A DNA stretch of 64,000 nucleotides from Desulfobacterales bacterium (GCA_963675805.2 CAXXNU010000019.1:388929-452928), one strand, 5' to 3'; shown: positions 39,651 to 60,306, counted from the stretch's first letter. Made by a program: numbers and translations. The notes: generated from the sequence alone by a model not told the origin.

Positions 39651-39758
39651 GCTTTGTAAAAAGCTCAAATTCTGTGTTGCGCTGCATCCTTCGCTGCTTC
39701 ATTGTACGAAAAGTACGAATCATTGCGAAGGATTTGTGCACCTTGAATTTGATGCTTT
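39651..39758. repeat. Dispersed intergenic repeat, copy A (hairpin-forming)
   Basis: The first 51 nt match copy B (54085-) at 45/51 positions by my manual alignment. Internal stems are AAAAGCTCAAATTC / GAATTTGA(T)GCTTTT and ATCCTTCGC / GCGAAGGAT. Confidence 0.65.
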
Positions 39759-39805
39759 TATACTTTGCTGTCAAAATATCTGTGTAAGATGAAGAAAGTA
39801 AAAAC

Positions 39806-40348
39806 ATGATGAAATTCCATGGCACCACCATTCTGGCGGTGAATTATAAGGGTAAAATGGCGGTTGCCGGTGACGGCCAGGTGACATTGAACCATTCCGT
39901 GGTCAAGCATCATGCCCGCAAAGTCCGCCGGATTTATAATGACCGGATTGTGGTGGGGTTTGCCGGGGCCACGGCCGACGCGCTGACCTTGTCTGAAAAA
40001 CTTGAAGGCAAACTGGAACGGTATAATGGCAACCTGATCCGTGCCGCAGTTGAACTGGCCCGGGACTGGCGGACAGACAAGTATCTGCGCCGCCTGGAAG
40101 CCATGATGATTGCGGTGGATGCCGCCCAGATGCTGCTGATTTCCGGCAACGGGGATGTGATCGAACCGGACGGGGGCGTGCTTGCCATCGGGTCCGGCGG
40201 CGTGGCGGCCCAGGCAGCGGCCACCGGGATTTTGAATCATGCGGATTCATTGAATCTGACCGCCCGGGACATTGTGGAACAATCTATGCGAATCGCCGCC
40301 AGTATCTGCGTGTTTACCAATGATGTGGTGACGGTTGAGGAATTTTGA
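39806..40348 (+). CDS. hslV: ATP-dependent protease subunit HslV
   Basis: [12 protein letters not shown] (N-terminal Thr nucleophile after processing), [15 protein letters not shown]. Confidence 0.9.
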
Positions 40349-41730
40349 TGAGCGACCTGAAACCAGCTGAAATCGTTAAAGAACTGGATAAATATATTAT
40401 CGGCCAGGACCGGGCCAAACGGTCCGTGGCCATTGCGTTGCGCAACCGGTGGCGTCGGCAGAATGTGGATGAAGAATTGCGCGAAGAGATCGCACCAAAA
40501 AATATTATTTTGATTGGCCCGACTGGCGTGGGAAAAACAGAAATCGCCCGTCGTTTGGCAAGACTCACTGAATCGCCGTTTATCAAAGTGGAAGCGTCCA
40601 AGTTCACGGAAGTGGGGTATGTGGGCCGGGATGTGGAATCCATGGTCCGCGATCTTTTGGAACTGGCCATCAATATGATCAAGTCCCGGGAGCAGGCGGC
40701 AGTGAAGATAAAGGCCCGGGAAATTGCTGAAGAGCGGATTCTGGATATTTTGCTTCCAGCGCCGGGTGAAAAACCCGCCGCCAATGTTCACGAGTTTAAG
40801 GAGTCATTGCAGACCGATCTGAAAGCTGTGGGGGAACCCAAAACAGTTTCCAGCACCCGGGAAAAACTGCGTAAAATGCTGCATGAGGGCCGACTGGACA
40901 AGCGGTTTGTGGATCTGGAGGTGGCGGACCGCTCCATGCCCATTGTGGAAATTTTTTCCAATACCGGTATGGAGGAAATGGGCATTAATTTTAAGGATAT
41001 GCTGAGCGGCATGATGCCCAAGGGGTCTTCCAAAAAAAGAAAAATGACCGTGTCCGAAGCCCTCGAAATATTGTCTCAGGAAGAAGCCCAGCGCCTGGTG
41101 GATATGGACAAGGTGGTGAAGGAAGCCATTCACAAAGCCGAACAGTCCGGCATTATTTTTCTGGACGAGATCGACAAAATCGCAGGCAAAGAAAAAACCG
41201 GGGGTCCTGATGTTTCCCGGGAAGGGGTGCAGCGGGATCTGCTTCCCATTGTTGAAGGCAGCACGGTGACCACCAAATACGGGCCGGTAAAAACCAACCA
41301 CATTTTGTTCATTGCCTCCGGCGCGTTTCATATGAGTAAACCATCTGATCTGATCCCGGAACTTCAGGGTCGGTTTCCAATCCGGGTGGAGCTGAATTCG
41401 TTGGGATGGAGGGAATTTTTGCGTATCCTCACTGAACCCAAAAACGCGCTCCTGCTTCAGTATATTGCACTTCTCCGGACCGAAGGGGTGAATGTGTCTT
41501 TTGACGACGCGGCAGTGGAAAATATTGCCCAGGTCGCGGAAGATGTGAACAATCATACGGAAAATATCGGGGCCCGCCGGCTGCACACGCTCATGGAGCA
41601 CCTGCTGGAAGATATTCTGTTTGATGCGCCGGATATCAGTGAGAAGGATATCGTCATCACCAAATCCTATGTGGATGAAAAGTTCAAGGATATCCGGGAT
41701 GATGAGGATTTGAGCAGGTATATTTTGTAG
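40345..41730 (+). CDS. hslU: ATP-dependent protease ATPase subunit HslU
   Basis: [25 protein letters not shown], Walker [17 protein letters not shown], Walker [15 protein letters not shown] overlap with hslV. Confidence 0.95.
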
Positions 41731-41778
41731 GTATAAGGTATAAGGTATAAGGTAGAAGGTGGAAGGTGGAAGGTAGAA
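41730..41778 (+). repeat. Heptamer array (GGTNNAA / AGGTNNA), 7 abutting units
   Basis: GGTATAA x3, GGTAGAA, GGTGGAA x2, GGTAGAA. The array starts on the G of the hslU TAG stop. Confidence 0.9.
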
Positions 41779-41788
41779 GGCTGGTCAG

Positions 41789-42145
41789 GTGCGGGATCAT
41801 ACAAAATTAAGGGCTTTTGCGCTGGTTGATGAAATAGCAATTTTAATTTATAGATTAACCGCCGAATTTCCAAAAGAAGAACGTTATGGCCTGACATCGC
41901 AAATGCGGCGGGCGGCAGTTTCTGCTCCTTCAAATATTGTGGAAGGATGTGCCCGGGACAGTCAGTCTGATTATCTCCGCTACCTGTATATTTCGTTCGG
42001 TGCATTGAAAGAATTAAATTACCAATTAAATTTATCAAAACGATTGGGTTTTTCTAATGACGATTATTTCGAATTGATTGAATCCAAAATTCTTGAGGCG
42101 GAAAAAGTACTGAATGGTTTAATTCGGTCAATCAGAAAAACCTGA
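41789..42145 (+). CDS. Four-helix-bundle protein (23S rRNA intervening-sequence protein / Avd-like family)
   Basis: 118 aa, GTG start. FPKEERYGLTSQMRRAAVSAPSNIVEGCAR...YLYISFGALKELNYQL is the family hallmark. Confidence 0.8.
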   Translation: MRDHTKLRAFALVDEIAILIYRLTAEFPKEERYGLTSQMRRAAVSAPSNIVEGCARDSQSDYLRYLYISFGALKELNYQLNLSKRLGFSNDDYFELIESKILEAEKVLNGLIRSIRKT

Positions 42146-42156
42146 CCCGTTTTAAC

Positions 42157-42184
42157 TTATACCTTAAACCTTATACCTAACCCC
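42157..42184 (-). repeat. Heptamer array, inverted orientation (TTNNACC), 4 units
   Basis: TTATACC TTAAACC TTATACC TAACCCC. This is the reverse complement type of the 41730 array. It ends 18 nt before the argB ATG. Confidence 0.85.
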
Positions 42185-42202
42185 CTACAAAAGAGGAACC
42201 CC

Positions 42203-44042: not shown

Positions 44043-45245
44043 GTGACAAAACAGGTAAACAAGGTGGTGCTGGCCTATTCCGGCGGCCTTGATACATCCG
44101 TGATTTTAAAGTGGCTGATTGAAACCTATGATTGTGAAGTCGTGGCCTTTTCAGCGGACATTGGTCAGGCCGAGGAGCTGGATCATATTGACGAAAAAGC
44201 CCGGAAAACCGGAGCAGTGAACGTGTATGTGGATGATCTGCGGGAAGAATTTGTAAAAGATTACGTGTTTCCTGCCTTCCGCGCCAATGCCATCTATGAA
44301 GGCCAGTATCTTTTGGGCACGTCTCTGGCAAGACCGCTGATTGCCAAACGCCAGATGGAAATCGCGGCCCTTGAAAACGCGGACGCAGTGAGTCATGGCG
44401 CAACAGGCAAAGGAAACGACCAGGTCCGGTTTGAATTGTCTTATTTTGCAATTAACCCGCATATCAAGATTGTTGCGCCCTGGCGGGAGTGGGATTTGAA
44501 TTCACGCACCGCTTTGATGGAATTTGCGGAAAAGCACGGCATTCCGGTGACCGCCACGAAGAAATCTCCCTACAGCACGGATCGGAACCTCCTGCATATC
44601 AGCTATGAAGGCGGCATTCTGGAAGACCCGTGGAGTGAGCCGCCGGAAGATATGTATACTTTGACCGTTTCCCCCAAAGACGCGCCGGATGAAGCGGATA
44701 TTATTGAAATTACTTTTAAAAACGGCGATCCCGTGGCGGTTAATGACCATTATTTGACCCCCGCGGCCCTGCTGGCGGAACTGAACACCCTTGGCGGGCG
44801 GCACGGCATCGGTAGAGATGATATTGTGGAAAACCGGTTTGTGGGAATGAAATCCCGGGGCGTGTATGAAACGCCGGGGGGCACTATTCTGCGTGCCGCC
44901 CACATGGCCCTGGAATCTTTGACCCTGGACCGGGAAGTCATGCATCTGCGGGATTCCCTGATTCCGAGATACGCGGAAATGGTGTATTACGGGTTCTGGT
45001 TTGCGCCGGAAAGGGAACTTTTGCAGAAAATGATCGACGACACCCAAAAGACAGTGAACGGCGTGGTGCGGCTGGAGCTTTTCAAGGGCCGGTGCCGGGC
45101 CATCGGCCGGAAATCCGATGATTCCCTGTATAATATGGATTTCGCCACTTTTGAAGATGACTCGGTCTACAAACAGTTTGACGCGGAAGGGTTTATCCGG
45201 CTGAATGCCCTGCGCCTCCGAATTCGGAAATTGATGAAAAAGTAG
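44043..45245 (+). CDS. argG: Argininosuccinate synthase
   Basis: GTG start after [37 protein letters not shown]. Confidence 0.95.
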
Positions 45246-45252
45246 AAGTGCA

Positions 45253-45280
45253 GGTATAAGGTATAAGGTTTAAGGTTTAA
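45253..45280 (+). repeat. Heptamer array (GGTNNAA), 4 units
   Basis: GGTATAA GGTATAA GGTTTAA GGTTTAA, 8 nt after the argG stop. Confidence 0.85.
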
Positions 45281-45432
45281 AATTTGAGATAAAAGTAAAA
45301 AAGTAAAGCTGAAAAGAGAAAAACGAAATTCCAGGTTGTTAGAATTTAAGGGAGGGCCTATCCCTCCCACTTCATAAAGACAGATAACTGCAGGATAGCG
45401 TTTTTTCTGACATGATACGGATACTCAGGGCT

Positions 45433-45485
45433 TTCAACCTTAAACCTTCTACCTTCTACCTAAGAACCTAAACAACCTAACAACC
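45433..45485 (-). repeat. Heptamer array, inverted orientation (TTNNACC), 4 units plus 3 longer degenerate units
   Basis: TTCAACC TTAAACC TTCTACC TTCTACC, then TAAGAACC TAAACAACC TAACAACC. It ends 10 nt before the argH ATG. Confidence 0.85.
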
Positions 45486-45495
45486 GAGACCCACA

Positions 45496-46905
45496 ATGAC
45501 TGAAAAACCATGGGACGGCCGGTTTGCGGAACCCACAGACGCGGCCGTGGAAGCCTTTACTTCCTCCATTGCGGTGGATAAGAAGTTATACCAATATGAT
45601 ATCGACGGCAGCATTGCCCATTGCAGAATGCTGGCCAAATGCGGCATTATCACCGTCGAAGAAGCAGATGCCCTGACTGGCGGTCTTGAAAAAATCCGCC
45701 AGGAGATCACCAGTGGAGATTTTGTTTTTTCGGACCGGCTGGAAGATATCCACATGCACATCGAGGACCGCTTGGCCGCCCATGTGGGCAATGTGTCCCG
45801 AAAATTGCACACCGGACGAAGCAGAAATGATCAGGTGGCCCTGGATATTCGGCTGTACCTGCGGGACATGAGCCGGAAAATCATATACGGCCTGGTTCAG
45901 CTCCGGAAAATTCTGGTGGATATGGCTGAAACCCACATGGATGTGGTCATGCCTGGATATACCCATCTGCAGCGGGCCCAGCCCGTGCTTTTTTCCCATC
46001 ATTTGCTGGCCTACTATGAAATGTTCGCCCGGGATACCCAGCGATTTTCAGACGGGTTTTCCAGGATGAATGTCATGCCACTGGGTGCGGCCGCCCTTGC
46101 CGGCACCACGTATCCTATTGACCGGGCCTATACCGCACAGCTTCTCGATTTTCCAAAGGTTTGCGAAAACAGTCTGGACGCGGTTTCGGACCGGGATTTT
46201 ATGGTTGAATTTCTCGCATCCGCCAGCTTGTGCATGGTGCATTTCAGCCGGTTTTCCGAAGAACTGGTCATGTGGTCGTCGTCTGAATTTAATTTTATCA
46301 CCCTGTCGGACGCCTTTTCCACGGGGAGCAGCATCATGCCCCAGAAAAAAAATCCAGACGTGCCGGAGCTGGTGCGGGGCAAAACCGGCAGGGTGGTGGG
46401 CAGTCTCATGGCCATGCTCACCCTGATGAAATCTCTGCCCCTGGCCTATAACCGGGACATGCAGGAAGACAAGCCCCCGGTGTTTGACGCAGCGGAAACC
46501 CTGAGCGCCTGCATTGATATTTACATCCGTATGCTGCCCGCCATTACCGTTAATGCCGAAATTATGCAAAATGCTTTGTCCACCGGCTATTTAAACGCCA
46601 CGGACATGGCCGATTATCTGGTGGGAAAAGGCATGCCGTTTCGGGAGGCCCACGGGTGTGTCGGCCGGGCCGTGAGCTACGGGCTGGATAACAAAAAAGA
46701 GCTGCACGAATTCACCCTGGATGAGCTGCGCCGGTTTTCCGATCTGATTGAAGAGGACATTTTTCCGGCCCTGACCATCGGCCGGATGATTGAACGGCGC
46801 ACCTCTTACGGCGGCACCGCCACGGACAATGTGCGGGCCGCTATGAAACGCGCAAAAGCGATAGTAGCGGCGGAGCTATCGGAAATCAGGGAAATGCATG
46901 GATAA
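45496..46905 (+). CDS. argH: Argininosuccinate lyase
   Basis: PWDGRFAE..., GYTHLQRAQP, SSIMPQKKNPD. Confidence 0.95.
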   Translation: MTEKPWDGRFAEPTDAAVEAFTSSIAVDKKLYQYDIDGSIAHCRMLAKCGIITVEEADALTGGLEKIRQEITSGDFVFSDRLEDIHMHIEDRLAAHVGNVSRKLHTGRSRNDQVALDIRLYLRDMSRKIIYGLVQLRKILVDMAETHMDVVMPGYTHLQRAQPVLFSHHLLAYYEMFARDTQRFSDGFSRMNVMPLGAAALAGTTYPIDRAYTAQLLDFPKVCENSLDAVSDRDFMVEFLASASLCMVHFSRFSEELVMWSSSEFNFITLSDAFSTGSSIMPQKKNPDVPELVRGKTGRVVGSLMAMLTLMKSLPLAYNRDMQEDKPPVFDAAETLSACIDIYIRMLPAITVNAEIMQNALSTGYLNATDMADYLVGKGMPFREAHGCVGRAVSYGLDNKKELHEFTLDELRRFSDLIEEDIFPALTIGRMIERRTSYGGTATDNVRAAMKRAKAIVAAELSEIREMHG

Positions 46906-49487: not shown

Positions 49488-49739
49488 TCTAATGCGGGGA
49501 ATCTTAACCCATGCGTCCGGTTGGCAATAACGGTTCCATGTTGCAGGTTCCTGGTTACAGGTGTCGGATGTCAGAATGGTTTGTTCCGGCATCCATAAAA
49601 CTCGATATTTAGGAAAATGGCCATCTGAACACGGACACCTTTTAATGGAAAACGATGTTTCATTTTTTTTGCACAGAAGCTCCAAAGTCAAAGTAGTAGG
49701 CTAAACAACCAAGACCCTAAGAAAATTGCGGGGGTGTTC

Positions 49740-52189: not shown

Positions 52190-52256
52190 GAATTTTTACG
52201 ATGCCGGACCGGCGTTATGCCCTATAAATGGCTTCGGAAGTCCTATAAACGTCACA

Positions 52257-52302
52257 AGCCGGATCAGCTGCAGCAAATGCAGGTCTGATCCGGCTTTTTT
52301 TA
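52257..52302 (+). terminator. Rho-independent terminator
   Basis: AGCCGGATCAG (52257-52267) pairs with CTGATCCGGCT (52285-52295), followed by a T7 run. Confidence 0.8.
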
Positions 52303-52343
52303 TGCCGGCTGGCAGGGTTGTCATAATAACCGATTCCTATTTT

Positions 52344-52406
52344 TTTACCATCTACCTTTTATCTTTCAGCTTTGAGCTTAAAGCTTCGATCTTTCACCTT
52401 CCCACC
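52344..52406 (-). repeat. Degenerate heptamer array TNNANCT x9 (reverse complement AGNTNNA)
   Basis: TTTACCA TCTACCT TTTATCT TTCAGCT TTGAGCT TAAAGCT TCGATCT TTCACCT TCCCACC. The last units overlap the final 4 codons and stop of the glycerate kinase gene. Confidence 0.7.
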
Positions 52407-53740
52407 AGTACAACCCTGATATCCATGACATTCGTACCGGTGGGCCCGGTCATTAAAAGATCCCCGGTTTTTTTGAAAAAGTGATAGCTGTCATTATTCG
52501 CGAGAAATTTATCCGGGTTCAGTCCAATTTTTCGAGCCTTTGCAATGGTGGATGTATCCACCACCGCGCCGGCGGCATCTGTGGGCCCGTCTGTGCCGTC
52601 CGTCCCCCCGCTTAAAATGACCATGCGGTTTTCGCCATGCATATCAAGGGCGGCAATAAGGGCAAACTCCTGATTTCGGCCGCCTTTACCATTTCCTTTC
52701 AGAACAATAGTGGTTTCGCCGCCGGACAATATACAGGCAGGTGCCGGAACAGGGCGGCCGAAGCGCTGAATGTTTTTTGCGGCATCCGTATGCAGGTGGG
52801 CAGCGGCCCGGGTGTCCCCTTCCAGATTTTCGTCTAAAATAAAGGGATTGTAACCCAGTTCGCAGGCTTTCTGATAGGCCGCGGCAAGTGCTTCTTTATT
52901 AGATGCGGCGATAGCATTGAGTGTGTTTTTAAAGGCAGGATGATTAAGTGGCGGCGTATCGGGCGTGATACCGGCGGCGCCCTCTTTCAGGTGCTGCAAA
53001 ACGGAAACCGGAATTTGGTTCTGGATGCGGTAGTTGTCAATAATTGTCAGACAATCAGAAAATGTCGTGGGGTCTCCCGTGGTGGGGCCGGAAGCGATAA
53101 CATCCAGCCGGTTGCCGACCACATCCGAAATGATCAGGGTGACCAGGGTGGCAGGGGATGCTTTTACGGCCAGATGGCCGCCTTTTATAGCGGATATGTG
53201 TTTTCTCAAGGTGTTGATTTCATCAATGGAGGCCCCGCAATGGAGAAGCGTTTGTAACGTTTTCTGCTTGTCCTGAAGGGTGATGCCCGGTGCCGGAAGG
53301 GGCAGTAGGGCAGATCCCCCACCGGAAATCAGGCAGATGATCAGATCGTTTTCCGTTGCCGCTTCTGCAATGTCCAGCATCTGAGTGGCGGCCTTCTCTC
53401 CGTTTGCATCGGGAATGGGGTGGCCGGCTTCAATCAGCCGGATTTTTTCAAGGGGCGCGGTATGACCGTATTTTACCGAGATGATTCCCGAGGTAATGGT
53501 TTTGCCCAGGATTTTTTCCATGGCAGCGGCCATGTGTGCAGATGCTTTGCCGGCGCCGATGATAAAGACGCGGTTAAACTGGTTTAAATGAAAAGTTTTC
53601 TGGTCAATGGAAAGGATGTGATTTTCATACCGGCATAATTTTTTAATTGCCTCAAACGCATTAACAGCGCTGAGCGCGCTGTTAAAAAGGCTTGCGGCAT
53701 GGCGCCGCATGGTATTTAATAAGATCTGATTTTCAGGCAT
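52394..53740 (-). CDS. Glycerate 2-kinase, MOFRL family (TtuD/GckA-like)
   Basis: FIIGAGKASAHMAAAME, LISGGGSALL, ILSGGETTIVLKGNGKGGRNQEFALIAAL, GTDGTDGPTDAAGA. Confidence 0.8.
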   Translation of the reverse strand: MPENQILLNTMRRHAASLFNSALSAVNAFEAIKKLCRYENHILSIDQKTFHLNQFNRVFIIGAGKASAHMAAAMEKILGKTITSGIISVKYGHTAPLEKIRLIEAGHPIPDANGEKAATQMLDIAEAATENDLIICLISGGGSALLPLPAPGITLQDKQKTLQTLLHCGASIDEINTLRKHISAIKGGHLAVKASPATLVTLIISDVVGNRLDVIASGPTTGDPTTFSDCLTIIDNYRIQNQIPVSVLQHLKEGAAGITPDTPPLNHPAFKNTLNAIAASNKEALAAAYQKACELGYNPFILDENLEGDTRAAAHLHTDAAKNIQRFGRPVPAPACILSGGETTIVLKGNGKGGRNQEFALIAALDMHGENRMVILSGGTDGTDGPTDAAGAVVDTSTIAKARKIGLNPDKFLANNDSYHFFKKTGDLLMTGPTGTNVMDIRVVLVGR

Positions 53741-58347: not shown

Positions 58348-60306
58348 CTAATGTTTTTTTGCCTTGGGCGTTTCATTGGTTTGGTTCGGTGCATTGTCCG
58401 GATCATTATTCGGGTCAGAAGCGGTTTTCGCAGATTCTGCGGCTTGCGATTCTTTTTCCTTTGCAAGGGTTTCTGCTTCAGCTGCTTTTTTTGCTTCTTC
58501 AGCAGCGATCTGCTTTTCTAAAAGATCCCGCTTTTTGTTGACTTCAGCGGTCTTTTGGTCCAAAAGGTCCCGCTGGGAAGTGCCGGTGGCCAGGGTTGCC
58601 GCGCTGTGCAGGTGGGTGAGGGCAGACTCATACCCCTCAATGGTATTTTTGCCGGCGGCCACATCCGCCTTGTATAGGGAGAACAAAAAATCAATGTTGC
58701 TCAGCCGTGTTTTTGCAGCGTTTTTGTGCTGGCGGTCCGGGGCGAAATGAATGGCCTTGTAAAGGTTTGTTTTAATGGCTTCAAAATCCGGCTGGCCTTT
58801 TTTTTCAGAAAGGGCCTCAGCCTTTTGGATATAAAACTGATAGGCCGGGACCAATGCTTCTTTTTTGGCGTAAACGTCTTTTACAGGTTCTTCAACGGAC
58901 GCGCCAGGGACATGCATTACCAGTTTTTTGCCGGTGGGTGAAAATTTTCCCTGCCAGATGTCAATGCCGCCGTCTGCCTGTTTCAGATAGTAGTTGTTCG
59001 TGTTCATGGCACTGGCAATGATCAGCAGCGCGAATAGTCCGCCCACGAGAGCGACTAATATTTTGACGGCGTTGTTCATAGGGGGCTCTGTCGGGCCCTG
59101 ATCAGCGGGAATTGATGGCGGTGCCGGTGGTTTTGCCGCTTTTTCTTCAGCTTCTTTCTCTGCTTTGGCTTTTGCCTCGGCCTCGGCTTTTGCTTTTTCG
59201 GCCGCCTCTTTTTCAGCTTTTGCCTTGGCTTCCGCTTCTGCCTTAGCCTTTTCGGCTTTCGCCTTTGCTTCAGCCTCTGCCTTGGCCTTCTCCTGAGCCT
59301 CTTTTTCTGCTTTGGCTTTTGCCTCGGCCTCGGCTTTTGCTTTTTCCGCGGCTTCCTTTTCAGCCTTTGCCTTTTCGGCTGCTTCCTTCTCCGCTTTCGC
59401 CTTTGCTTCAGCTTCTGCTTTGGCTTTCTCCTGAGCCTCTTTTTCTGCTTTGGCTTTTGCCTCGGCCTCGGCCTTTGCTTTTTCTGCGGCCTCTTTTTCA
59501 GCTTTTGCCTTGGCTTCCGCTTCGGCCTTGGCCTTTTCGGCTGCTTCCTTCTCTGTTTTCGCCTTTGCCTCAGCTTCTGCTTTGGCTTTCTCTTGAGCTT
59601 CTTTTTCTGCTTTGGCTTTTGCCTCGGCTTCGGCCTTTGCTATTTCTGCGGCCTCTTTTTCTGCCCGGGCCTTGCCTGCTGCCTCAATGACCTTCATATC
59701 AAAGGTTCTGGCAATCAACCCCCGAATACGGTCGGCTTCTGCTTTGTCTTTGCTCTCAAAGGCCGGGGGAGCGGAAAAGCCTTTTTCAAACGAATCATCC
59801 ACCGCCGGCACATATAATTTTTTGGGCTGCCAGGAATCAAATTGAAGATTGATCAGTTCTCTTACGGAAAGTGTTTTTTTGGGTTTGGCGGCTGGTTTTT
59901 CTTTTGCCGGTGCTTTTGGCTTTGCTTTTGGGGCTGTTTTTTTTTTTGGCTTTTCTGCTTTTGCCTTGTCCGGCACAGTTAGGTCGAATTGCCGATTTAA
60001 AAGGTCCCGCAGGGCGGTTGCTTTTTCTTTGTCTTTCTCATCAATGGCCGGCGGCGCTGAAAAGCCACTTAAAAGGTCACTGTCCGGGGTTGCTTTGAAA
60101 AGTTTTTTAGGGGCCCAGGCATCAAATTTCCTGTTCAGGATGGATTTCAAGGTTGGTTTTTTGGGCGCCGGTTTTTTTTTGGCCGTTGGCTTTTTTGTTT
60201 CTTTTTTAGGGGCAGCGGCTTTGGTTTCCGTTTTCTTGGCGGTTGTCTTTTTTTTCGCGGTTGCTTTCTTTTTGGTAGTGGATTTGGTCAGGCTTTTTTT
60301 TCCCAT
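58348..60306 (-). CDS. Repetitive single-pass membrane protein: H1-like Lys-rich N-tail, duplicated about 50-aa module, KAEAEAKAKAEKEA repeat coiled coil, TM helix, C-terminal domain
   Basis: 652 aa. The N-terminus is MGKKSLTKSTTKKKATAKKK.... Two FD(A/S)W(A/Q)PKKL(F/Y)...GFSAPPA modules are present. About 9 units of an 18-aa K/A/E repeat follow. The TM helix is AVKILVALVGGLFALLIIASAM. Confidence 0.7.
   Translation of the reverse strand: MGKKSLTKSTTKKKATAKKKTTAKKTETKAAAPKKETKKPTAKKKPAPKKPTLKSILNRKFDAWAPKKLFKATPDSDLLSGFSAPPAIDEKDKEKATALRDLLNRQFDLTVPDKAKAEKPKKKTAPKAKPKAPAKEKPAAKPKKTLSVRELINLQFDSWQPKKLYVPAVDDSFEKGFSAPPAFESKDKAEADRIRGLIARTFDMKVIEAAGKARAEKEAAEIAKAEAEAKAKAEKEAQEKAKAEAEAKAKTEKEAAEKAKAEAEAKAKAEKEAAEKAKAEAEAKAKAEKEAQEKAKAEAEAKAKAEKEAAEKAKAEKEAAEKAKAEAEAKAKAEKEAQEKAKAEAEAKAKAEKAKAEAEAKAKAEKEAAEKAKAEAEAKAKAEKEAEEKAAKPPAPPSIPADQGPTEPPMNNAVKILVALVGGLFALLIIASAMNTNNYYLKQADGGIDIWQGKFSPTGKKLVMHVPGASVEEPVKDVYAKKEALVPAYQFYIQKAEALSEKKGQPDFEAIKTNLYKAIHFAPDRQHKNAAKTRLSNIDFLFSLYKADVAAGKNTIEGYESALTHLHSAATLATGTSQRDLLDQKTAEVNKKRDLLEKQIAAEEAKKAAEAETLAKEKESQAAESAKTASDPNNDPDNAPNQTNETPKAKKH
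59139..59670 (-). repeat. In-frame tandem repeat, 54-nt unit (about 9 copies, two truncated)
   Basis: The marker TGCTTTGGCTTTTGCCTCGG recurs at 59161, 59308, 59446 and 59608. The offsets (147, 138, 162 nt) equal multiples of 54 plus truncated 39- and 30-nt units. The repeat encodes KAKAEAEAKAKAEKEA(A/Q)E. Confidence 0.85.

Follow-up and report, generated by a model that had tools for sequence, protein, structure and literature searches.

The window that we analyzed, a 64,000-nt stretch of DNA from a Desulfobacterales bacterium (GCA_963675805.2 CAXXNU010000019.1:388929-452928), has a 250-nt spacer between argG and argH that is bracketed by two facing arrays of tandem heptamers. A similar bracket, loaded with a gene, lies between hslU and argB in the same gene run. 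The locus raises the question of what the gene-less spacer is, how it came to lie there, and whether it acts on its neighbors. We conclude that it is quite likely an insertion: a degenerate copy, without a gene and with hypermutable heptamer arms, from the family of cassettes that carry the gene for the 23S rRNA intervening-sequence protein (IVP). The fuller account, an inserted gene-less cassette that resembles a miniature inverted-repeat transposable element (MITE) and whose transcript would be processed at the RNA level, is the best explanation of the whole and is reasonably probable. The anatomy of the element, its insertion status, its family membership by architecture and termini, and the hypervariability of its arrays are directly supported.

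The argG-argH spacer has complementary heptamer arms and no gene

The plus-strand gene run of the window reads xerC-like, hslV, hslU (40345-41730), argB (42203), argF (43120), argG (44043-45245), and argH (45496-46905), where argG is identified by matches of ORF 44043-45245 to Arginosuc_synth and Arginosuc_syn_C (ORF, open reading frame). The element between argG and argH is about 245 nt long and contains no credible ORF or transposase gene. Its parts are as follows.

45242-45256, plus strand: left terminus GTAGAAGTGCAGGTA, of the form GTA-N6-CAGGTA (compare the canonical cassette end GTAACTACTCAGGTA)
45243-45245, plus strand: argG stop codon TAG, inside the left terminus of the element
45253-45280, plus strand: left heptamer array GGTATAA GGTATAA GGTTTAA GGTTTAA, 7 nt past the argG stop
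45281-45432, plus strand: core of 152 nt, free of ORFs and of any IVP remnant; inner part of the rod fold
45318-45325, plus strand: 5' side of the inner stem, GAAAAACG, pairing with 45399-45406 (RNAalifold consensus, 7 orthologs)
45350-45368, plus strand: apical hairpin GGGAGGG-CCTAT-CCCTCCC; the stem is invariant in orthologs, the loop is CCTAT, CGTAG, or CTTAG
45399-45406, plus strand: 3' side of the inner stem, CGTTTTTT (RNAalifold consensus)
45433-45460, plus strand: right heptamer array TTCAACC TTAAACC TTCTACC TTCTACC, complementary to the left array
45461-45485, plus strand: right subterminal tail TAAGAACC TAAACAACC TAACAACC, three units of 8-9 nt that carry CTAAACAACC; C/A-rich leader of argH
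45496-46905, plus strand: argH, with its ATG 10 nt past the tail

Reading the sequence put both arrays, the tail, and the GGGAGGG hairpin where the original prediction had placed them. We also agree with it that the interior of roughly 150 nt has no credible ORF: the only frames in or near the core are of 20 to 21 amino acids, plus a 67-amino-acid antisense frame that overlaps the end of argG. The arms, 45252-45281 and 45432-45461, form a 30-nt inverted repeat with 90% complementarity. The Shine-Dalgarno-like sequence of argH is a weak GAGA only.

The arrays are not random low-complexity sequence, because both strong periodicity and exact units are confined to four cassette arms. The only strong arrays of period 7 that Tandem Repeats Finder detected in the window were those at 41729-41780, 42156-42178, 45252-45280, and 45433-45461, and perfect matches to GGTNNAAGGTNNAA all lay inside these four arrays of the two cassettes. 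With at most one mismatch, GGTNNAAGGTNNAA matched 19 times in the 64 kb against 4.5 expected, a count that none of 100 shuffles reached. In the window, then, the heptamers are not the common random sequence that the original prediction had allowed they might be throughout the genome.

The element is missing from the same junction in close relatives

We placed the window in Desulfococcaceae/Desulfobacteraceae. Its argG is 90-92% identical to that of four metagenome-assembled genomes (L001-L004; one genome per species was scanned), and gene order at the arg locus is conserved among relatives. Comparison of the argG-argH spacers, which the original prediction had proposed, showed just 13 to 30 nt in L001, L003, L050, L008, and L012; in the first three of these, argG is 88-92% identical to that of the window. 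The hslU-argB spacer is 5 to 18 nt in L001, L002, L006, and L008. It is the whole 250-nt argG-argH spacer, not just its arrays, that is missing in close relatives, which argues that the element, as judged by sequence comparison, is an insertion.

Several relatives carry other repeats at these junctions. The argG-argH junctions of L002 (7217-7454) and L004 (1245-1415) have a long left-type array (GGTGGAA seven times in L002), then a hairpin GTAGGTCGGATTAGC...GTAATCCGGCAT resembling a repetitive extragenic palindromic (REP) sequence, and no right-hand array. Inverted GCTAACC/GGTTAGC heptamers stand at such a junction in L009. A small gene-less bracket lies between hslV and hslU in L001; in the window these two genes overlap. 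These genes are also separated in L214 (8020-8570) and L298 (3095-3495), by an inserted hicB/hicA-like toxin-antitoxin pair that follows GGCGGAA GGCGAAA GACTGAA and lacks a right-hand array.

The cassette between hslU and argB is a full-size member of the same family

The loaded twin of the argG-argH element consists of the following features.

41723-41731, plus strand: 3' end of hslU, TTTTGTAGG, with stop TAG at 41728-41730; pairs with 42184-42192
41730-41778, plus strand: left array of seven heptamers, GGTATAA three times, GGTAGAA, GGTGGAA twice, GGTAGAA
41789-42145, plus strand: IVP gene (23S rRNA intervening-sequence protein/four helix bundle protein; PF05635, TIGR02436)
42157-42177, plus strand: right array TTATACC TTAAACC TTATACC
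42184-42192, plus strand: CCTACAAAA, complementary to the 3' end of hslU

The ORF matches PF05635 (E = 5.5e-30), PDB 2GSC (E = 1e-24), and TIGR02436, and the protein is distantly related to Avd. The RNA of the twin folds like the argG-argH element, around its ORF (z = -3.31), with an outer stem that takes in the last hslU codons. The claim that the same bracket stands at two junctions, once with and once without a four-helix-bundle gene, is thereby borne out: the ORF is a PF05635 member and both RNAs are rods. The closing stem reaches into coding sequence that belongs to hslU itself, to judge by cassette-free relatives, in which hslU also ends in ...YIL-stop.

The last hslU codons, TTTTGTAGG, are perfectly complementary to CCTACAAAA, which stands immediately to the right of the loaded cassette.

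Heptamer-armed IVP cassettes recur at many loci

Homologs of the IVP protein number more than 7,000 at E <= 1e-10, the closest being 70-97% identical. Many of them are on contigs of 0.5 to 1.5 kb, and the heptamer arrays probably break short-read assemblies. We surveyed 80 metagenomic loci plus other contexts; the latter include L203, where the neighbors of the IVP gene are an acyl-CoA synthetase gene and a gene for a binding protein, and L209 (Dehalococcoidia), where they are DUF5343 and dprA. The unit pattern of the family is GRYNNWA on the left and TWNNRYC on the right. Upstream runs are of GRCTGAA, GGTKGAA, or GGCTGTA, and the complementary downstream runs are of TTCAGYC, TTCAACC, or TACAGCC. 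By a periodic scorer, arrays flank both sides in 46 of the 75 IVP genes from the metagenome and related loci, one side in 18, and neither side in 11. Arms of the same cassette pair better than arms of different cassettes (-39.0 versus -34.4 kcal/mol; 0 of 2,000 permutations). The cassettes are mostly oriented with their neighbors (43 versus 18 upstream and 41 versus 11 downstream).

Among 69 brackets, 46 have an IVP gene and 23 have no intact one, with gene-less cores of 7 to 362 nt. These 23 include an IVP pseudogene (L275; E = 1e-66) and two copies with decayed remnants (L231; E = 3e-13 and 1e-6); the others, the argG-argH element among them, give no IVP signal. The gene-less argG-argH copy may have arrived as such, or it may have lost its IVP gene in place, as the original prediction had offered. 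A search of the core for decay remnants of the four-helix-bundle gene (tblastn and a six-frame hidden Markov model search) returned nothing at E <= 10, although the same test detects L275 and L231. We therefore rejected a decayed IVP gene in the core; the core may have been replaced completely. In none of the complete two-armed brackets did we see a cargo other than the IVP. The IVP gene is thus a near-constant passenger, but that it is mere cargo is not established, since the IVP could be a working part of the cassette.

Arrays of GGTNNAA are also common in IMG/VR contigs (L083-L202, for example L085, L125, L132, and L189), where 44 of 157 have a TTNNACC array no more than 2 kb downstream, mostly 3 to 80 nt away, as pure heptamer hairpins. 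We considered a viral link and rejected it: no IMG/VR GGTNNAA array adjoins an IVP gene, and the canonical terminal repeat is not in viral contigs.

Termini and target duplications point to mobility of the family

Canonical IVP cassettes end in outer inverted repeats, GTAACTACTCAGG...CCTGAGTAGTTAC. Just outside them are 8-bp direct repeats, which match at 8 of 8 positions in L224, L228, L241, L267, and L280 and at 7 of 8 in L238 and L250; in a cross-cassette control, at least 6 of 8 matched in 3.6% of pairs. These repeats and duplications were found by anchored search plus reading by eye. A gene-less copy of about 135 nt (L249) combines a 12/12 terminal inverted repeat with arrays in both arms, has a core of 39 nt, and is flanked by the repeats GTCTGTGG/GTCTGTAT. 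The right-end motif CTAAACAACC, searched as CTAAWHAMC, occurs in 18 of 72 downstream flanks of IVP genes versus 0 of 78 upstream flanks.

The argG-argH element has recognizable family termini: GTA-N6-CAGGTA on the left, over the argG stop, and CTAAACAACC on the right. The likeness of the left terminus to the outer inverted repeats of IVP cassettes was judged by eye and post hoc, and is suggestive only. The arms of its terminal inverted repeats are formed by the arrays; the canonical GTAACTACTCAGG is vestigial and is represented by the left GTA-N6-CAGGTA. With MITEs the element shares small size, the lack of a transposase gene, terminal inverted repeats, and presence or absence at orthologous sites. 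Its arms are multi-copy: the 64 kb contain two elements plus a single array without a partner, and related loci have dozens. No transposase-bearing element with the canonical ends was seen, the ends having been searched only in viral contigs (0 matches), and a search for other copies of the core gave no match to a plasmid. By its outer inverted repeats, 8-bp target duplications, and presence/absence pattern, the cassette family would behave like a non-autonomous transposon. The original prediction had proposed that the bracket is the conserved or mobile unit. For the family this is supported by the recurrence of the bracket (46 of 75 IVP genes; 23 of 69 brackets without an intact IVP gene) and by the terminal repeats and duplications in canonical relatives and L249. 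That support does not extend to the mobility of the argG-argH copy itself.

Arrays change by whole units among near-identical haplotypes

We compared eight haplotypes: the window and the orthologous loci L081, L082, L214, L295, L297, L298, and L299, which come from one long-read metagenome and were found by exact-protein look-ups. Exact look-ups with the ArgH of the window and with P0128 gave no match. Both elements are present in all seven orthologous loci. The argG-argH arrays have 3 to 5 units on the left and 3 to 7 on the right; there are 7 array alleles in the 8 haplotypes, and every difference in array length is an indel of whole 7-nt units. The core differs by a handful of substitutions, with deletions of 1 to 2 nt in two haplotypes, and L295 has one 8-nt tail unit duplicated. 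In the 200 codons of argG and of argH next to the element, divergence at four-fold sites is no more than 2-5%. Because 7 array alleles are found at this level of divergence, we conclude that the arrays mutate far faster than by point substitution. After insertion, the arrays would thus evolve as hypermutable simple-sequence repeats that gain or lose whole units.

A rival explanation takes the arrays to be a by-product of replication slippage, in which heptamers expanded independently at the two ends of an ordinary spacer and would be unrelated to IVP cassettes, immobile, and without function. Unit numbers do change freely, partnerless lone arrays occur at 52343-52398 in the window and in L002 and L004, and heptanucleotide repeats are the commonest long simple-sequence repeats of prokaryotes according to the summary in PMC4679880 of Mrazek 2007. 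However, slippage of this kind does not fit two arrays that are complementary and close a rod, or a two-armed plan with arm-to-arm specificity at dozens of unrelated loci. Nor does it fit terminal motifs in common with IVP cassettes or the absence of the whole 250 nt, rather than the arrays alone, from relatives. We regard slippage by itself as a very improbable origin of the argG-argH element, which we continue to read as an inserted cassette.

The loaded cassette varies in a different manner. Its left array has 5 to 10 units across orthologs, and its right array is constant at three. The IVP gene at the hslU-argB site is 98.6, 83.4, and 70.6% identical to that of the window in L081, L082, and L214, against 95-98% for the flanking genes. 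In L082 the gene is a mosaic whose 5' half is window-like and whose 3' half is L214-like. Divergence at the site starts at the left array and stops just before the argB ATG, and these bounds indicate cassette replacement or gene conversion. Paralogous IVP copies in one genome were rejected as a source of the variants, since the members of the 90% cluster are orthologs from co-occurring strains.

This exchange bears on a second rival, in which the arrays are a DNA-level site for recombination or protein binding (handles for cassette exchange, comparable to integron attC sites, or a surface to which the pentameric, Avd-like IVP binds) and the gene-less element is an empty docking site. The replacement of the IVP between left array and argB fits such a site, as does the hicB/hicA pair that follows heptamers between hslV and hslU in L214 and L298. 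The IVP is homologous to Avd, and a left array of 5 to 10 units facing a 3-unit partner means that pairing alone does not explain its length. However, no recombinase is linked to the elements, no complete two-armed bracket was seen with non-IVP cargo, and ordinary homologous recombination from one paralogous cassette to another can account for the exchange. A DNA-level docking site is in our judgment quite improbable.

The spacer RNA folds into a rod and is probably read through

The RNA of the spacer folds as a single rod (-63.8 kcal/mol; z = -3.15) in which the arrays form the outer stem, GAAAAACG/CGTTTTTT the inner stem, and the GGGAGGG hairpin the tip. The last ~39 nt of the segment, the C/A-rich tail to just beyond the argH ATG, are unpaired in the predicted fold. 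In every ortholog the minimum-energy fold pairs the arrays, and the duplex energies lie between -32 and -19 kcal/mol. We found no sigma-70-like promoter consensus inside or around the element and no intrinsic terminator (GC-rich hairpin plus T-run) between 45246 and 45495. The arg genes are therefore probably read through, and the element is probably cotranscribed with them.

The same data speak to the suggestion, made in the original prediction, that the spacer is an independent small-RNA gene, and to the related idea that argH is preceded by a leader or riboswitch of a known kind. Either would fit a region that is structured and lacks an ORF. However, Rfam 15 gave no gathering-score match in 45150-45600, only snoRNA matches at chance level (E of ~1 to 10). 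The element contains neither a promoter nor a terminator consensus, its stems show no covariation, and it is absent from close relatives. We give a small RNA or known leader hardly any credence. Gathering-score matches elsewhere in the window were two tRNAs only; no rRNA is present.

Several observations weigh against an inserted, MITE-like cassette with RNA-level processing. The argG-argH copy has no visible target duplication, and its outer inverted repeat is degenerate. When the 152-nt core was compared by blastn with 2 Mb of related loci, only orthologs and no second copy were found, and a scan of JGI metagenomes for GGGAGGG-N5-CCCTCCC-N15-35-CTGCAGGATAG gave 0 matches. The core is thus single-locus in the data searched, where a MITE would usually be multi-copy. 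Core divergence among the haplotypes (2-2.6%) does not differ from that at neutral four-fold sites (2.1-4.8%, 200 codons on each side; P = 0.15 to 0.6). RNAalifold on 7 orthologs detected no covariation in the stems (covariation term, +2.69); the sequences vary too little, and the rare substitutions in stems disrupt pairing. When one array changes, the other does not change to match it, and the outer stem is down to about 15 bp in L082 and L214.

A pooled four-fold comparison that would have had the core conserved by selection (P of ~1e-4) was rejected as an artefact of rate heterogeneity along the locus.

Some of the observations above also count against another rival, a selected cis-acting RNA element that sets argH expression. 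It could act as a processing site, by protecting the argG mRNA from 3' exonucleases, or through Shine-Dalgarno-independent initiation, with array length as a phase-variable dial. Such a role is suggested by the position within an operon and the rod fold, by an argH that has only the weak GAGA behind an unpaired C/A-rich tail, and by array lengths that vary among strains, as at contingency loci. However, close relatives run the operon with a 13- to 30-nt spacer, the core is no more conserved than nearby neutral sites, covariation is absent, and L082 and L214 have a decaying outer stem. A change in unit number would switch neither reading frame nor promoter spacing: the arrays lie outside ORFs, and no promoter consensus spans them. 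We consider a cis-acting RNA element of this kind unlikely and a selected effect of the element on argH doubtful.

For the inserted cassette, we propose the following course. The element would be read through in the arg polycistronic transcript, which would fold into a rod with an outer stem of 24 to 30 bp between the two arrays. If the 23S intervening sequences that bear an IVP gene are a guide, this stem would be a likely substrate of RNase III, although we put its processing by that enzyme no higher than a distinct possibility. Cleavage would uncouple the argG and argH segments of the mRNA and leave argH behind an unstructured C/A-rich leader.

Other repeats in the window

A looser periodic scorer identified one further array.

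52343-52398, minus strand: lone left-type array GGTGAAA GATCGAA GCTTTAA GCTCAAA GCTGAAA GATAAAA GGTAGAT GGTAAAA

This array begins in the TGA stop of a minus-strand glycerate-kinase-like gene (52394-53740) and has no complementary partner. It is followed by a hairpin resembling a bidirectional terminator (~52255-52300) and is kept in L082 and L214.

A 172-nt stretch at 49492-49664 is present in the window and L081 and missing in the otherwise near-identical L082 and L214. Within it are GGTTCCA-like units at a period of 7 nt and a weak inverted repeat of 17 nt (49559-49575/49624-49640). We considered a third element at 49530-49720 and rejected it, as what lies there is this separate indel and not a heptamer bracket.

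Another repeat family, AGGATTTGnGCnCCTnGAATTTGAnGCTTTT, has one copy in the window, at 39729-39759 upstream of hslV. A related insert of about 150 nt lies between argF and argG in L081 (12253-12412), L082, L214, and L295; in the window this spacer is 11 nt. Finally, 59138-59760 is a long complex tandem repeat, GCYTTYGC-rich with periods of 54, 108, 138, and 162, and probably encodes, on the minus strand, a repetitive stretch rich in Ala, Lys, and Glu.

Relation to known systems

The closest comparison is with the intervening sequences (IVS) of 23S rRNA. In Coxiella burnetii, the IVS has an inverted-repeat stem and an IVP (S23p) ORF, with two or three tandem GACAGAT and one GACAGAA upstream of the ORF in numbers that vary by strain; RNase III cuts the stem at the start of the first repeat (PMC4990558). 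The distribution of rRNA IVS is sporadic, and their former mobility is an old hypothesis (PMC4990558). Like IVP cassettes, the 23S IVS of Leptospira, Coxiella, Xanthomonas, and Brucella have a long inverted-repeat stem around a PF05635 ORF, and the GACAGAA of Coxiella fits the GRYNNWA unit of the heptamer arrays. The argG-argH element shares with them the stem-closing inverted repeats and the variable-number tandem heptamers in the stem. Unlike them, it lies between protein-coding genes rather than in 23S helix 9, 25, or 45, and it has no PF05635 ORF, which its twin has at 41789-42145. Excision by RNase III is a feature of IVS and for the argG-argH element is predicted by analogy only.

Correia elements (CREE, Correia repeat enclosed elements; NEMIS, Neisseria miniature insertion sequences) and the enterobacterial repetitive intergenic consensus (ERIC) elements of Yersinia are also ORF-less inserts of 100 to 250 bp with inverted ends, found in transcribed intergenic sites and present or absent by strain. 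Cotranscribed MITEs of Neisseria are cut or bound by RNase III (PMC2649163, PMC10969869), and the hairpin RNA of Correia and ERIC elements leads to RNase III cleavage (Correia) or altered mRNA stability (PMC2649163, PMC10969869, PMC2229807). There is no sequence relation between these elements and ours. Their arms are fixed 26-bp inverted repeats, whereas the arms here are hypervariable heptamers; the full-size partner here carries a four-helix-bundle gene and not a transposase, and the core is single-locus in the data searched.

Intergenic heptamer repeats near start codons have been described in Beggiatoaceae, Cyanobacteria, and Bacteroidetes (TAACTGA; PMC4679880) and as four-heptamer elements in Geobacter (PMC2700814). 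They share with the argG-argH arrays noncoding tandem 7-nt units near gene ends and variable copy number, and they too stand near start codons without a canonical ribosome-binding site (PMC4679880, PMC2700814). However, those repeats have been described only as direct ones, whereas here two facing complementary arrays close a hairpin and are tied to one gene family. The cyanobacterial short tandemly repeated repetitive (STRR) sequences are likewise comparable to the heptamer arrays. The REP sequences of enterobacteria, with their composite bacterial interspersed mosaic elements (BIMEs), are palindromic units in the intercistronic spacers of operons that stabilize mRNA, and REP mobility depends on REP-associated tyrosine transposases (RAYTs). 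The argG-argH element differs from REP/BIME in sequence, size, and organization, and no RAYT gene was seen here. Searches of Rfam and of literature outside subscription journals gave no description of IVP cassettes with heptamer arms at sites other than rRNA, or of gene-less forms derived from them.

Implications for the IVP family

Since the early 1990s it has been an open question where bacterial rRNA intervening sequences and the very large PF05635/TIGR02436 family come from and what they are for. For a study of the family as a mobile element, the locus described here and its relatives offer junctions with and without the insert, copies that are loaded, decaying, or gene-less, terminal repeats, 8-bp duplications, and arms that mutate by whole heptamers in one population. 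We tentatively propose, short of thinking it probable, that heptamer-armed IVP cassettes are a widespread, undescribed mobile class, with terminal repeats and target duplications, at operon junctions across phyla (Desulfobacterota, Dehalococcoidia, and many metagenomic lineages). The IVP-bearing 23S IVS would be its rRNA-resident minority, and the gene-less hairpins its MITEs. The arrays would serve as a self-repairing double-stranded RNA stem for RNase III, as homology handles for cassette exchange, and possibly as a docking surface for the Avd-like IVP pentamer. By itself, the argG-argH element is a MITE-like hairpin related to rRNA intervening sequences; of greater interest is the picture of the family as a whole. 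The locus also suggests that double-stranded RNA sites are built in between the cistrons of many operons of these bacteria, which would matter for mRNA processing and for how operon structure is read from sequence.

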